Positions 6,510-48,211 of a stretch of 64,000 nt of DNA are shown piece after piece. The DNA is from a virus. The position numbers and the translations under genes were made by a program. The notes beneath the pieces were generated by a model that was given only the letters and a program-made list of their open reading frames with translations, was not told the origin of the DNA and ran no database searches. The stretch is from the IMG/VR virus record IMGVR_UViG_3300045988_098456. One strand, 5' to 3'. Position 1 is the stretch's first letter. Each line of letters starts with the position of its first letter.

Positions 6510-6517
6510 TATCTTTG
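6510..6517 (+). promoter_or_regulatory. Bacteroidota-type -7 box (TATCTTTG)
   Basis: tatctttg lies 19 nt upstream of the ATG at 6536. Confidence 0.55.
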
Positions 6518-8600: not shown

Positions 8601-8630
8601 GGGGAATGCGTGAGTATTCCCCTTTGTTTT
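8601..8630 (+). terminator. intrinsic terminator after the lysis cassette
   Basis: Stem ggggaat / attcccc with an 8-nt loop, followed by tttgtttt. Confidence 0.6.
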
Positions 8631-8931
8631 GCAGCTGAGAATATACTTCGGCAGAGCATTGCCGAATTGGGGAGTGGTAGCAAGTCACCCAAGCACTCGC
8701 AAGGGCGCAGCCACGTTAGTCACCCAACAATTCCTTGCAAGTAGCAAGGAAATATGCCAAGGTTGCTCTTTTTTTGTCTTGAAAATGCCTTAGAGTGTAA
8801 AATGTTAAAATTGCAAGCGGATTAATGTATTTATAGTTTTGTATACGTAACTAAAATTGTGTTATCTGTTAAAAATACGCAATCAGAGTAGAATAACACA
8901 TTAAATCCCTTGCAGTTTGAAAATAAATTAG

Positions 8932-14470: not shown

Positions 14471-15718
14471 ATGATTTACGTAAGGAGCAAGGATGGTAAG
14501 GCATTGATGCCAAGCGAGCGTGGAGGGAGGATAGGCTATCTTCTTCGCCACGGCAAGGCTCATGTAGTCAGCCGTGTTCCGTTTGTCGTTCAGTTGGATT
14601 ATGAGAGCACCACCTATACGCAGGAAGTGAGCCTTGGCATTGATGCTGGTTCAAAGCATATTGGCGTTTCAGCTAGTTCCGAGAAGAAGGAGCTGCTTGC
14701 AGCGCAGGTTGAGTTAAGAATTGATGTTGTGAACTTGCTATCTACTCGCAGGGAGTTGAGACGAACAAGGCGAAACCGCAAGACACGTTATCGCAAGTCT
14801 CGTTTTGACAATCGAAAGCGAAAGGATGGTTGGCTAGCACCCAGTGTTGAACAAAAGATTGAGAGTCACTTGAAGGTTATCCGCTTGGTTCATAAGTTAC
14901 TTCCAATTACGAAGACCACAATCGAGGTTGCTCAGTTTGATGCTCAGAAAATCAAGAATCCAGACATCAATGGTGAGGAGTATCAGCAGGGTGAACAAAT
15001 GGGATTTTGGAACGTGAGGGAGTACGTCTTGGCTAGGGATGGGAACAAGTGTGTTCATTGCAAGGGTAAGAGTAAAGACCCAATCTTGAATGTTCACCAC
15101 TTGGAGAGCCGGAAGACAGGTGGCAATTCCCCTAGTAATCTCGTTACTCTATGTGAGACTTGTCACAAGGCTTACCATCGTGGGGAGTTCGAGTTGAAAA
15201 TCAAGCGTAGAAATTCCTTGCGTGATGCAGCCGTTATGAATATTATGCGTTGGGCGGTCTATGAGCGAGCGAAGGAAGAATTTGAGAACGTTCACTTGAC
15301 TTATGGTTATGTAACCAAGCATACTCGCATAGAGAATGGTATTGCCAAGACCCATGCAGCCGATGCTTTCTGTATTGCTAAGAATATTAACGCAATGAGG
15401 TTGAGTACTTTCTTTATGTGCCGTTGTGTTCCTAGCCATACGAGAAGGTTGCACGTTGCCAACCCTAAGAAGGGCGGCATCCGCAGAAGCACGATAGCCT
15501 CTCATAAGATAGGTAAGTCCCGCTTTCAGCGTTTCGACATGGTGCGTTGGAAGGGTAAGGAATGCTTTATCTTTGGCAGCACGCATGGTAATGTTGTTTT
15601 GCGTAAAATTAATGGCGTAAAGGTGCATGAAACGCAAGCTGTGAGTGCCAAAACGATAAAGTTTTTAAAAAGAATTAGAAATAACATTTTAGTGGAAGTA
15701 AGGGCTTCCGAAAATTGA
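14471..15718 (+). CDS. iscB: IscB RNA-guided endonuclease (OMEGA family, Cas9 ancestor type)
   Basis: 415 aa. PLMP-type N-terminus (KDGKALMPSERGG), RuvC-I (LGIDAGSKHIGVS), Arg-rich bridge helix (RRELRRTRRNRKTRYRKSRFDNRKRK), RuvC-II (TIEVAQFD), HNH (CVHCKGK..NVHHLESRKTGGNSPSNLVTLCETCHKAYH) and RuvC-III (KTHAADAFCIA). Confidence 0.85.
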   Translation: MIYVRSKDGKALMPSERGGRIGYLLRHGKAHVVSRVPFVVQLDYESTTYTQEVSLGIDAGSKHIGVSASSEKKELLAAQVELRIDVVNLLSTRRELRRTRRNRKTRYRKSRFDNRKRKDGWLAPSVEQKIESHLKVIRLVHKLLPITKTTIEVAQFDAQKIKNPDINGEEYQQGEQMGFWNVREYVLARDGNKCVHCKGKSKDPILNVHHLESRKTGGNSPSNLVTLCETCHKAYHRGEFELKIKRRNSLRDAAVMNIMRWAVYERAKEEFENVHLTYGYVTKHTRIENGIAKTHAADAFCIAKNINAMRLSTFFMCRCVPSHTRRLHVANPKKGGIRRSTIASHKIGKSRFQRFDMVRWKGKECFIFGSTHGNVVLRKINGVKVHETQAVSAKTIKFLKRIRNNILVEVRASEN

Positions 15719-18119: not shown

Positions 18120-18820
18120 AGTATATGGGTAGTAAGGCTAGAATCGTGCATGAAATATTGCCGATTATGCTGGACAAAGAGCATGATACGTTTGTAGATG
18201 CTTTCTGTGGCGGCTGTAGCGTTATAGAGAATGTTCCGAACACGTATCGAAGGATTGCCAACGATAAGAATAGGTATCTTATCGAAATGTGGAAGTATCT
18301 TCAGAATGATGGGTTTGTCTTCAACCATATTAGTAAGACGTTGTATAACTTTGCACGAGACTGCTATCACGGAAAGAATAATTTCTTCACAGAGGCTGGT
18401 GTCGGACTAATTGGCTTTATGGCGAGCTTTAATGGTCGCTTCTTTGATGGTGGCTATAGCGGACATAATGTTGTCGGCAAGAACGGAAAGGCAAGAGATT
18501 ACATAAGGGAACAGATAGAAAACACAATGCGTGATGTGCCTCTCATCAAAGGTGTTGAGTTCTATAGTGGTAGCTATGATGAACTTGTGATACCGGATAA
18601 TAGTATAGTATATTGCGATTTGCCTTACAAAGCTACGAAAAAGTATGATGTATCAAAGAATTTCGATTACGAAAGATTCTATATATGGTGCATGGAAATG
18701 GCTAGAAGAGGTCATAAGGTATTTATCAGCGAATACCAGATGCCACAGGAGGTCAGATGTGTTTGGGAAAAGGAAGTAACCAATTCCCTTAACCCGAATA
18801 TTACAAACCAATTCCCTTAA
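18116..18820 (+). CDS. dam: Dam-type (D12 class) N6-adenine DNA methyltransferase, C-terminally frameshifted
   Basis: 234 aa. MKYMGSKARIVHEILPIM, FVDAFCGGCSV (FxGxG) and VYCDLPY (DPPY-type motif IV). The last ~11 conserved residues are displaced to the +1 frame by the 28-bp duplication at 18780..18835. Confidence 0.75.
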   Translation: MKYMGSKARIVHEILPIMLDKEHDTFVDAFCGGCSVIENVPNTYRRIANDKNRYLIEMWKYLQNDGFVFNHISKTLYNFARDCYHGKNNFFTEAGVGLIGFMASFNGRFFDGGYSGHNVVGKNGKARDYIREQIENTMRDVPLIKGVEFYSGSYDELVIPDNSIVYCDLPYKATKKYDVSKNFDYERFYIWCMEMARRGHKVFISEYQMPQEVRCVWEKEVTNSLNPNITNQFP

Positions 18821-18835
18821 CCCGAATATTACAAA
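18780..18835 (+). repeat. perfect 28-bp tandem duplication (2 x ccaattcccttaacccgaatattacaaa)
   Basis: Unit 1 spans 18780..18807 and unit 2 spans 18808..18835. 28 nt is not a multiple of 3, and a TAA is created at 18818..18820. Confidence 0.9.
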
Positions 18836-18876: not shown

Positions 18877-19035
18877 ATGAAAGAAACTTATTGTTTAGAA
18901 GATACGCTTTACAATACAAAGCGCTACTTCACTATGGAGAATGGAGTGGTGTCAGGAACAGAACTTGCACAAGAATACTTTAACGTGTTCCTTGATCTTG
19001 CAAGTCGGCTTGGTTATAATGTAGTGAAATTATGA
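18877..19035 (+). CDS. hypothetical small protein
   Basis: 52 aa from the first ATG of ORF track 18844..19035. Confidence 0.4.
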   Translation: MKETYCLEDTLYNTKRYFTMENGVVSGTELAQEYFNVFLDLASRLGYNVVKL

Positions 19036-19193
19036 CTAGGCGAGTACACAAGGATTGTCCGTTCACGGCAGAAGAATTGGATGAGTTCAGAGCAGCTTTG
19101 TATAATGTGAATACATCTTTTCACTGCTGTAATGCAGCTCCGGTAGACTGGTCGGCAGGATGGCAGCGGAATGATATAAGAAAGACGAGGTAG
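19032..19193 (+). CDS. hypothetical small protein (53 aa, below cutoff)
   Basis: Hand-translated as MTRRVHKDCPFTAEELDEFRAALYNVNTSFHCCNAAPVDWSAGWQRNDIRKTR. ATGA overlap with the upstream gene. Confidence 0.4.
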   Translation: MTRRVHKDCPFTAEELDEFRAALYNVNTSFHCCNAAPVDWSAGWQRNDIRKTR

Positions 19194-19199
19194 GATTTC

Positions 19200-19630
19200 C
19201 ATAATCGACCAAATACCCACGTGTCAAAGCCGTGTGATGCCCAGCGTGGGGGCGGGATTGTAAACTTAGGAGTCACACGGCTTTATTTTGAAGTTTCATA
19301 ACTACAAATAGCCTATCGCTAATGGTTGTTCCCTTGGGCAGGGAGATAGTTAATACCGCATCGTAAGATGTGAACACTTAAAATTTGCCGACAACCATTG
19401 GCAAATGCCTATTAGTCAGCGGCAGAAACCCTTGGGCAAGGTTGGGAATGGTGCGCAATCTTCAACTTCGCATCTGTCGCTGACAAACGGATGAGTGGCA
19501 TTGGCAACTGAAAGCAATGCGACCCTCGCAAACTTGGAGCGGATTTTCTGATTAAACATTCCGTGTACTGAGTCACTGGGGAGGAATTGGCCCAACAAGG
19601 GTTTAAATCCCTTGTCATCCACTAATTTTA
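19200..19630 (+). ncRNA. candidate large structured noncoding RNA (unclassified)
   Basis: ~430-nt gap with no plus-strand ORF, GC-enriched. Perfect 12-bp helix 19226-19237/19273-19284, crossing helix 19216-19221/19245-19250, 11-bp helix 19319-19329/19391-19401, 11-bp helix 19415-19425/19474-19484, hairpin 19498-19503/19515-19520, and T-arm-like hairpin 19596-19614. Confidence 0.45.
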
Positions 19631-19642
19631 AAAGGTATAATT

Positions 19643-19870
19643 ATGAACGAGTATTGTAAGAATTTGATTTCAAATGGAGTTCCTAGCTGGATAGTAGAGG
19701 AGGCTTATAAATTTACAATTGAGCCTTTGAAACCAACAGAAGGCTTGGTAGGAATTGATAAGGAAAATAGTGAGCTATATAGAAATGTCATTATCGCAGC
19801 CTACATTGAGGGTGCTAGTGCTACATTGGAAAAAGTGAAAAGATATTATGGCGATGAGGAACATAGTTAG
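19643..19870 (+). CDS. hypothetical protein
   Basis: 75-aa ORF. Confidence 0.5.
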   Translation: MNEYCKNLISNGVPSWIVEEAYKFTIEPLKPTEGLVGIDKENSELYRNVIIAAYIEGASATLEKVKRYYGDEEHS

Positions 19871-20087
19871 ACAATGGAACGAGGCAACAGAAGGATATTC
19901 GTACCGCTTCAAAGGTGGAGATATTTTCCTCCGGTTGGTTAAGGCTGAAGGTAGTTATGAATTGCGTAACCCTATAGGTTATGGTGTTCAAGTAGTCATA
20001 TGCAAAGACTTGGATGAAGCAGATGCAAAAGCCAAGGAAGTGCTAGAAGTGTTTTTTGAAGACAAAGTTAACATAAAAGTTATTTGA
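19848..20087 (+). CDS. hypothetical protein
   Basis: 79-aa ORF overlapping the upstream gene. Confidence 0.5.
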   Translation: MAMRNIVRQWNEATEGYSYRFKGGDIFLRLVKAEGSYELRNPIGYGVQVVICKDLDEADAKAKEVLEVFFEDKVNIKVI

Positions 20088-20404: not shown

Positions 20405-20446
20405 CCCCATCACTATATATAATAATGTAGTGGTGGGGATTTTTGT
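20405..20446 (+). terminator. intrinsic terminator
   Basis: 11-bp stem ccccatcacta / tagtggtgggg followed by atttttg. Confidence 0.65.
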
Positions 20447-48113: not shown

Positions 48114-48135
48114 CGAGTAACTTTTGTCGATTACG

Positions 48136-48208
48136 AGGAATGTAGCTCAGTAGTAGAGCACTTGGCTTGGTAACTAAGGGGGCGTTGGTGCAAATCCAAC
48201 CATTCCTT
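48136..48208 (+). tRNA. aberrant tRNA with 8-nt anticodon loop CTTGGTAA (Thr-GGT-like or Pro-TGG-like)
   Basis: Hand fold: perfect acceptor AGGAATG/CATTCCT, D arm GCTC-AGTAGTA-GAGC, anticodon stem CTTGG/CTAAG enclosing 8 nt, T arm GTTGG-TGCAAAT-CCAAC (G at position 55). 73 nt. Confidence 0.5.
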
Positions 48209-48211
48209 TAC

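Follow-up and report, generated by a model that had tools for sequence, protein, structure and literature searches.

A candidate structured noncoding RNA with a tRNA-shaped end in a clade of Segatella copri phages, and its TnpB-interrupted allele

Phages encode stable RNAs together with their tRNA genes, the species 1 and 2 RNAs of phage T4 being examples. Structured phage RNAs with a tRNA-like module are a known kind, to which the element described here would belong. It is located on the + strand of a 64,000-nt stretch of viral DNA (IMG/VR record IMGVR_UViG_3300045988_098456), which is referred to as the window. The core of the element, 19294-19625 (+), is best read as a gene-like module for a structured noncoding RNA with a tRNA-shaped end, found in one clade of Segatella copri phages; the probability of this reading is put at about 0.5. 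Judged by Rfam 15 and by the literature searched, the RNA would be a new family, for which covariation is thin.

In its modelled fold, the element resembles phage tRNAs and tRNA-like structures in a 12-bp acceptor/T-type minihelix, a T-loop-like heptaloop and the order of the arms; it further resembles them in the lack of an encoded CCA and in a position within a longer transcript. It differs from tRNA-like structures in having no anticodon arm, an atypical D arm, U in place of C56, and two extra domains on the 5' side. Like GOLLD, ROOL and HEARO, it would be a large multi-domain RNA carried by a phage of a gut bacterium, whereas it is at most half as large as these, is without an Rfam match, and is far more narrowly distributed (one phage clade). 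IStrons, which combine a group I intron with an IS200/605 insertion sequence (IS), resemble the long allele of this locus in the presence of a long structured RNA 5' of tnpB and of more structure 3' of it. This is in contrast to the lack of a group I signal here, to flanks that are not exons of one gene, and to a 3' structure that is the target flank. With respect to the TnpB of IS200-IS605 elements (ISDra2-type), the element would behave as a transposon-associated motif (TAM) plus target, i.e. as an "empty site", and the guide of the sister-phage tnpB corresponds to 19567-19584; the element itself is neither an omega-RNA nor a transposon end, the window has no tnpB, and its orphan omega-RNA lies 10.6 kb away. 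A bacterial example of a tRNA mimic is the Y RNA YrlA (PMC4201824), from which the element differs in that its putative ends sit at the acceptor stem and a Ro/Rsr partner is not known for it.

Architecture and natural variation of the element

The interval 19194-19642 (449 nt) is the largest + strand gap without open reading frames (ORFs) of at least 50 aa between ~6 and 30 kb of the window, and the only ORFs of at least 60 aa within it are two antisense ones. Its G+C content is 0.45-0.50, against ~0.37 around it. The first-pass annotation, made from the letters of the window, had described a GC-enriched coding gap with a candidate structured RNA. Both the gap and the enrichment were borne out, and every helix and repeat that it had listed was recovered at its coordinates when the sequence was re-read and inverted and direct repeats were recomputed. 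Among these is cccttgggca, which occurs as a direct repeat (19331 and 19429); its first six letters, CCCTTG, recur at 19609, where they form the 3' arm of the last hairpin. The RNAfold z-score of the interval is -2.83 on the + strand vs -1.71 on the - strand, and that of the core is -3.99 against shuffles. All of the 18 control windows from the same genome (mean -0.80, standard deviation 1.17) are weaker than the core, and the best of them (-3.18) holds a real omega-RNA.

The consensus fold and the pairing statistics are drawn from 38 distinct sequences, and all homologues are at least 91% identical. The parts of the element are as follows.

19212-19293, + strand: 5' hairpin module, a perfect 12-bp stem (19226-37/19273-84) with a 35-nt loop, then the U-rich run UUUAUUUUG
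19294-19317, + strand: core leader, unpaired in the consensus fold, UUUCAUAACUACAAAUAGCCUAUC, nearly invariant among the 38 sequences and present once in the window
19318-19402, + strand: Domain A, closed by a 13-bp stem (19318-30/19390-402) in the consensus fold
19415-19484, + strand: Domain B, closed by an 11-bp stem (19415-25/19474-84, one G-U pair) in the consensus fold
19489-19621, + strand: Domain C, a tRNA-shaped four-way junction in the consensus fold
19489-94/19615-20, + strand: acceptor-like stem of Domain C, ggatga/tcatcc
19498-503/19515-20, + strand: D-position hairpin of Domain C, gcattg/caatgc, with an 11-nt loop and a 2-nt linker (UG) before it
19524-81, + strand: long arm of Domain C, 58 nt in three segments
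19582-95, + strand: hypervariable linker of Domain C at the variable-arm position, the most variable stretch of the element
19596-601/19609-14, + strand: T-like hairpin of Domain C, caaggg/cccttg, with the loop UUUAAAU
19621, + strand: discriminator-like A of Domain C, directly after the acceptor-like stem

Within Domain A, the closing stem includes an 11-bp helix (19319-29/19391-401) with one G-U pair, and the inner parts are a CCUU-GGGC-RGGG motif (19332-43) and the hairpin CGCAUC-GUAA-GAUGUG (19357-72), which carries a GNRA loop. Polymorphism in this domain converts six pairs to G-U, and in two rare cases a pair is lost. An extended Domain A stem (19304-29/19391-416) was considered and set aside, as natural variants give it no support. 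The inner hairpins of Domain B are CCUU-GGGC-AAGG (19430-41) and a second one at 19451-54/19470-73; in its closing stem, G19422A changes a G-U pair to A-U in 16 of the 38 sequences.

The 5' hairpin module stands apart from the core. It may include a pseudoknot (cccacg/cgtggg, 19216-21 with 19245-50), and it shows one informative change only, A19275G, by which U-A becomes U-G. In MT835610, L039 and L044, the segment 18116-19210 (Dam methylase and two small ORFs) is absent and homology rejoins at 19211, a recombination breakpoint. In L084 and L167, unrelated sequence extends up to 19293, so that the module is absent, and homology resumes at the core leader. These two upstream breakpoints identify 19212-19293 as a separable module. 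The boundaries set by the first-pass annotation thus have to be redrawn: the separable part is less constrained, and the core begins at 19294. With its trailing U-run, the 5' hairpin module may be a leaky terminator. We also note that the Dam-type methyltransferase gene carries at its 3' end, at 18780-18835 of the window, a perfect 28-bp tandem duplication (two copies of ccaattcccttaacccgaatattacaaa), which alters and shortens the C-terminus of the enzyme relative to phages such as L125, where it reads ...NPNITKRPIERLFTID.

The pattern of variation fits a + strand RNA. Standard pairs make up 99.6% of the pair cells in the alignment, vs 33-46% when the partners are slid by 1-3 columns. All nine polymorphisms that occur in at least five of the 38 sequences keep the pair, eight by a G-U or A-U switch and one by a compensatory change (19596/19614), in which C19596G and G19614C occur together in 10 sequences. 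Changes at Watson-Crick pairs that were seen at least twice produce G-U in ten cases and A-C in two. Twelve G-U pairs are invariant; read from the other strand, they would be A-C. Nucleotide diversity is distributed along the region as follows.

19194-19211, spacer: 0.129
19212-19293, 5' hairpin module: 0.074, above the core
19294-19625, core: 0.040; paired positions 0.033, unpaired positions 0.052
19489-19566, within Domain C: 0.020, the lowest in the region
Four flanking ORFs: first and second codon positions 0.018-0.046; third positions 0.058-0.159

Diversity in the core is as low as that of first and second codon positions of the neighbouring genes, which points to purifying selection. The structured-RNA claim of the first-pass annotation is thus upheld in the form of a conserved, selectively constrained, structured element of the + strand, and not a decayed gene. 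A functionless GC-rich spacer, or a DNA-level site such as an origin, a packaging site or protein-binding repeats, conserved only through close kinship, would account for homologues that are all at least 91% identical, for the threefold occurrence of CCCTTG, and for the fact that the element can be lost. We regard it as improbable, however, in view of a diversity 2.5-3 times below that of neighbouring third codon positions and of the adjacent spacer, a tolerance of G-U pairs that is asymmetric between the strands, and a folding z-score that is extreme for the genome.

A rival on the coding side is a small protein gene of 67-68 aa on the - strand (~19416-19622), with the folding being incidental. 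Its frame is open in 36 of the 38 sequences, and gene prediction in metagenomes now and then includes it. If only the 11 commonest polymorphisms in 19416-19584 are considered, eight affect third codon positions of the antisense frame (p = 0.02), a point that also counts against the noncoding reading; all of these sit in loops, linkers or G-U-tolerant pairs too. The frame shows no codon periodicity when all polymorphisms are taken (p = 0.38-0.57), whereas three of four neighbouring ORFs reach 1e-3 to 1e-6, and three length variants (1- or 2-nt indels) at 19585-92 shift it after ~10 codons. Neither antisense ORF has a Pfam match. Against 5.8 billion proteins, the antisense product finds three near-identical clusters and nothing below 89% identity. 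Moreover, all neighbouring genes are on the + strand, the - strand has no TAnnTTTG promoter box between 18635 and 20063, and such a gene would leave the constraint and pairing in 19294-19415 unexplained. It is accordingly given very little credence.

The window is that of a tailed phage, with genes for a 2091-aa tape measure protein, a GH108 lysin, two DNA methylases, an HNH endonuclease and RNase H. Matching phage sequence was found on a contig of a Segatella copri metagenome-assembled genome (MAG), and the carriers of the element are gut tailed phages of Segatella (Prevotella) copri, with the element confined to one phage clade. GenBank holds one relative (MT835610, human stool, unannotated), and IMG/VR well over 100 related contigs of 60-130 kb. 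The element is carried by ~120 related phage contigs, in copies that are all 91-97% identical; each related contig, like the window, has a single copy. A 23-mer scan returned relatives at 91-96% identity only. Synteny through the downstream gene ORF75 reached ORF75 homologues of 69-80% protein identity, next to which the element is still 92-97% identical. A gapped double-motif scan (CCCTTGGGCA...CCCTTGGGCA) was discarded as a homologue finder, as it added unrelated coding repeats from environmental viruses. No distant homologue of the element was detected by any of these three approaches.

The TnpB allele of sister phages

The element is split in ~30 of the ~150 loci that were recovered through ORF75; the share of sister phages with the cassette is put at a quarter to a third. 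These loci retain 19200-19403 and 19567-19642, and 19404-19566 is replaced. The spacing falls into two classes, 208/209 nt (122 loci) and 1322/1325 nt (30 loci), which comprise 48 distinct short alleles and 25 distinct long alleles, respectively; the window carries a short, intact allele. Two features of the window are defined by this comparison.

19404-19566, + strand: segment replaced in long alleles, from BLAST of the element against ORF75-anchored loci and from the sequence and ORFs of L125
19563-19584, + strand: putative TnpB recognition site, TAM-like GTGT (19563-66) and then the guide sequence ACCAGGTCACTGGGGAGG, in place of which the window has ACTGAGTCACTGGGGAGG

The replacing cassette is 1.28 kb long and has its own TATCTTTG promoter and a 378-aa ORF (L125). 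This ORF matches the Pfam families OrfB_IS605 (1.6e-25), Cas12f1-like_TNB (1.2e-16) and HTH_OrfB_IS605, aligns over its full length to ISDra2 TnpB (8bf8; E 1.7e-42), and retains the RuvC motifs. Domain A stays intact in the TnpB-bearing allele, and Domain B is deleted. As Domain C forms one structural unit across the junction, the short allele is the intact one and the long allele the disrupted one. Most simply, the long allele would have arisen in two steps, by insertion of the IS 3' of GTGT (19563-66) and then by deletion of 19404-19566 together with the outer left end of the IS. Both edges of the deletion share (T)GCA: the resident sequence reads CCATTGGCA followed by A, and the left end ...AAACTGCA followed by CTTAATTA.

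In ISDra2-type TnpB, the omega-RNA takes its guide from the sequence that directly follows the right end on the 3' side. In all long alleles, the IS right end (...GAGTATGTCAA) adjoins 19567, and the guide of the long-allele omega-RNA is therefore ACCAGGTCACTGGGGAGG, the 3' strand of the long arm of Domain C. The 18 nt after the right end are the same as 19567-84 of about half of the short alleles. The guide region, starting ACCAGG, is identical in all 25 distinct long alleles, which are related by descent, so that the contrast between long and short alleles is no formal test. Of the 48 distinct short alleles, only about half are perfect matches to the guide, and the rest read ACTAGG, ACTGGG or ACTGAG. 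The window allele, ACTGAG, has three mismatches, at guide positions 3-5, and mismatches at these positions block cleavage by ISDra2 TnpB. Among the stem positions of the short alleles, 19569-71 vary most, and they always still pair with 19534-36, via G-U. These variants fit an escape from TnpB cleavage in co-infection, or they may only mark where the helix tolerates change.

Within the phage population, this TnpB also occupies other sites, and further copies occur in Prevotella bivia and in a rumen Prevotella. All IS copies end with a covarying hairpin followed by GAGTATG(T/C)CA(A/T/C), where homology stops. At this locus the right end stops at the 19566/19567 junction, and 19567-19625 is therefore flank and not transposon. 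For the same reason, the 3' part of the element was rejected as an omega-RNA scaffold or transposon right end: five independent IS copies stop at ...GTATGTCAA, exactly at the junction. The left-end flanks were not used as a source for the TAM, since the majority of canonical copies sit 3' of paralogues of a single 123-aa phage gene and are hence not independent.

An omega-RNA covariance model (R1) was built from 24 IS 3' ends. The scaffold consists of a closing stem, UAUAC/GUAUG, around three hairpins and ends in GAGUAUG(U/C)CA(A/U/C). As a positive control, the model identifies a complete orphan omega-RNA at 8633-8760 (+) of the window, with 128 of 128 positions, 149.4 bits and E 9e-38. This orphan lies directly after the terminator of the upstream gene, in a locus with a tnpB remnant (8628-8741) of the last 38 codons; its would-be guide is GGTTGCTCTTTTTTTG, and sister phages have a full tnpB at that site. 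In 19000-19900, by contrast, the model with filters off reaches at most 2.9 bits (E>1), and it finds nothing inside 22 short alleles.

These results bear on the view of the element as a relic of mobile DNA, i.e. a non-autonomous IS200/IS605 derivative (palindrome-associated or miniature inverted-repeat transposable element, PATE/MITE) or an orphan omega-RNA left after loss of tnpB. A TnpB cassette at the same locus in sister phages, a true orphan omega-RNA elsewhere in the window, and the gross layout of Domain C, which like the local omega-RNA is a closing stem around three hairpins, speak for such an origin. It is nevertheless very unlikely. Apart from the low score of the covariance model and the flank character of the 3' part, the right-end hallmark is absent, tblastn of TnpB against the window matches only 8628-8741 and finds no remnant at the element, the element is single-copy per genome, and Domain C spans the junction as one unit. 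An orphan omega-RNA or PATE/MITE identity was therefore rejected on the negative model R1, the single copy and the absent IS end sequences. The first-pass annotation had excluded an omega-RNA on the ground that no nuclease, reverse transcriptase or recombinase gene is adjacent. The exclusion is sustained by the covariance model, and the neighbouring ORFs include none of these apart from an HNH gene (14471-15718). What had been missed is the TnpB gene inside the element in sister phages, for which comparison is needed.

Other copies of the IS merit description in their own right. In the IMG/VR contigs L222, L223, L244 and L245, the same TnpB IS adjoins phage tRNA gene sequence. The right-end flanks of these copies are TCGACCCCCACAGC (T loop/T stem) and (TCAATGGT)AGAACGTCAGTC (D loop); TGGT precedes the copy in the D loop and GGGT the copy in the T loop. 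The guides of these copies would target tRNA genes. A parallel is provided by the homing endonucleases of the T4 tRNA cluster (PMC2330249). In L173 (Prevotella bivia) and L176 (MAG of a sheep-omasum Bacteroidaceae), chromosomal relatives of TnpB with 69-72% identity have a divergently oriented IS200-type tnpA (Y1 transposase) upstream and thus represent complete IS200/IS605 elements. All phage copies of the TnpB IS are without tnpA. We also note a rearranged long allele in the ENA metagenome scaffold L262 (98-2524), in which tnpB is 3' truncated and the omega-RNA end and 19567-19625 are missing. This allele also carries duplications, of 88 nt of tnpB and of the first 182 nt of ORF75, and could be a real rearrangement or an assembly artefact.

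Resemblance to tRNA and to known RNA families

Domain C resembles a tRNA in several respects. The acceptor-like and T-like stems are contiguous and form a 12-bp stack, which divides as 6+6 or, with the G19596/C19614 version of the variable pair, as 7+5, the canonical split of tRNA. The loop of the T-like hairpin, UUU(A/G)AAU, is closed by G-C. The arms follow the order of the cloverleaf: acceptor, D, long arm, variable, T. The discriminator-like A and the trailer CTAA after it are the same as after the CCA-less tRNA-Glu of the phage itself. Domain C is accordingly described as a tRNA-shaped module and not as a tRNA, a resemblance in the modelled fold rather than a statistical match. The tRNA-like 3' end proposed by the first-pass annotation holds in this restricted sense: stack, heptaloop, arm order and trailer agree with it, and neither the tRNA model nor default ARAGORN makes a call. 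A relaxed ARAGORN search (80% thresholds, introns) called exactly 19489-19622. This call was discarded and carries no weight because the same settings yield 90 calls per 64 kb.

Several observations weigh against reading the core as a functional, tRNA-shaped RNA. The Rfam tRNA model (RF00005) gives no match at E<=10 in 19000-19800, whereas the five true tRNAs of the phage, at 47.8-48.3 kb, score 47-67 bits; likewise, ARAGORN with default settings calls no tRNA in the element. In the T-like loop, U replaces the near-universal C56. The arm at the D position is atypical, a 6-8-bp hairpin with an 11-nt loop, and a 58-nt arm takes the place of the anticodon arm. With homologues that are all at least 91% identical, one truly compensatory pair is present and statistical covariation is absent; shuffle controls, too, are weak when sequences are related. 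The element is dispensable, as it is lost in part in many sister phages, and the fact that many apparently successful phages do without two thirds of the RNA speaks against an important role. As to the history proposed for the long allele, no intermediate (intact RNA plus full IS) was found in viral contigs, and five metagenome matches to it are due to chance. The sequences GTGT at this locus and TGGT and GGGT before two tRNA-gene targets suggest a TAM ending in KGT, which is inferred from these three independent target contexts only.

We further note that one of the five clustered tRNAs, at 48135-48209 (+) of the window, has an 8-nt anticodon loop; ARAGORN assigns it the 4-base anticodon tggt, and the tRNA model gives it 59 bits. 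It may be a frameshift-suppressor-like or otherwise unusual tRNA.

The comparison with described RNA families was made with Rfam 15 at gathering score and E<=10, and the element reached no family; the TnpB allele, scanned likewise, gave nothing above noise. The best matches below threshold were the L31 leader (19.1 bits, gathering 33.2) at the first hairpin and the DUF2815 RNA (16 bits, gathering 41.2) at the Shine-Dalgarno (SD)/AUG region. The first-pass annotation had proposed such a scan, and GOLLD, ROOL and HEARO were among the families without a match. It had also found by eye no signature of transfer-messenger RNA (tmRNA), RNase P, signal recognition particle (SRP) RNA or group I/II introns, which agrees with the lack of Rfam matches. 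ARAGORN found no tmRNA at default or 70% thresholds, nor did Rfam. No group I intron family matched at E<=10 in the window element or in 850-2560 of L125, which covers the TnpB allele. An IStron was rejected on this ground, neither allele having an intron signal, and because the upstream context varies freely and the downstream ORF has its own start.

Expression context, proposed processing and meaning

Every gene neighbouring the element is on the + strand. The octamer TATCTTTG recurs ~20 times in the window (e.g. at 6510, 8932, 13821, 15568, 20541, 41670, 47696 and 48920, +). It is one fixed form of the Bacteroidota -7 box TAnnTTTG and often stands ahead of gene blocks and of the tRNA cluster; these sites are probably the phage's promoters for host RNA polymerase. 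On the + strand, the octamer is absent between 15568 and 20541, and the last TAnnTTTG box of any form before 20541 is a weak one at 18346-18353, within the Dam gene. A sigma-70-like match at 19612-41 depends on a TATAAT that is absent from most relatives. The only convincing terminator is at 20405-20438, after three small ORFs downstream of the element. The element thus lies in a + strand operon that runs to this terminator and has neither a promoter nor a terminator of its own, so that a free RNA would need processing.

The same context is what suggests a purely cis-acting intercistronic element, which would process, stabilise or tune the flanking mRNAs and release no free RNA. The first hairpin, with the U-run after its 12-bp stem, would be a leaky terminator, the structure would protect mRNA ends, and the start of ORF75 could be occluded. 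Besides the missing promoter and terminator, this alternative draws on the 21-nt distance between the end of the element and the ATG at 19643, on a linkage to ORF75 that persists in every case, also where the upstream context differs, and on the complementarity of 19295-304 to 19638-47 (9 of 10 positions, AUG included). The pairing between leader and AUG was rejected, however, as common variants at 19638 and 19642 break it, and the initiation region of ORF75 is unchanged in TnpB alleles that lack most of the element. Furthermore, three elaborate domains whose loops do not vary, and a 78-nt stretch with a diversity as low as 0.02, exceed what a processing signal needs. Cis action alone is thus possible but, on balance, unlikely.

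If the core encodes a structured noncoding RNA, as preferred here, the RNA could be cut from the operon transcript by tRNA-processing enzymes. RNase P would cleave 5' of G19489, and a 3' endonuclease would cleave after A19621, as for CCA-less phage tRNAs; the one hint of such processing is the A and CTAA trailer shared with the phage tRNA-Glu. Cleavage of this kind would give a stable tRNA-mimic RNA, with or without Domains A and B, and leave the downstream mRNA with a leader of 21 nt. The former might then engage a tRNA-binding factor. In co-infection, the intact allele would be a natural target for the TnpB-omega-RNA of long-allele phages, leading to homing-type gene conversion, and the window allele, being mismatched at three positions of the seed next to the TAM, would escape cleavage by TnpB. 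The fullest version of this proposal is a tRNA mimic with two accessory domains that titrates or redirects a host tRNA-directed factor, in a gene that is contested by a rival TnpB and escapes through G-U-tolerated seed changes. It is speculative and, taken as a whole, doubtful. The candidate factors, which share that low standing jointly with it, are an anticodon nuclease, another tRNA-targeting defence, or a tRNA-processing or tRNA-modifying enzyme.

Should the RNA be expressed, it would represent a new multi-domain family with a tRNA-mimicking module in phages of a highly abundant human gut bacterium, a setting, that of S. copri, in which almost nothing is known of phage RNA biology. Whatever the function of the RNA, the locus is a clean natural polymorphism of a TnpB/omega-RNA cassette in a phage population, for which public data show the guide together with its uninterrupted target and the candidate escape variants. 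It makes RNA-guided homing between co-infecting phages directly testable, which is more useful than the RNA alone.

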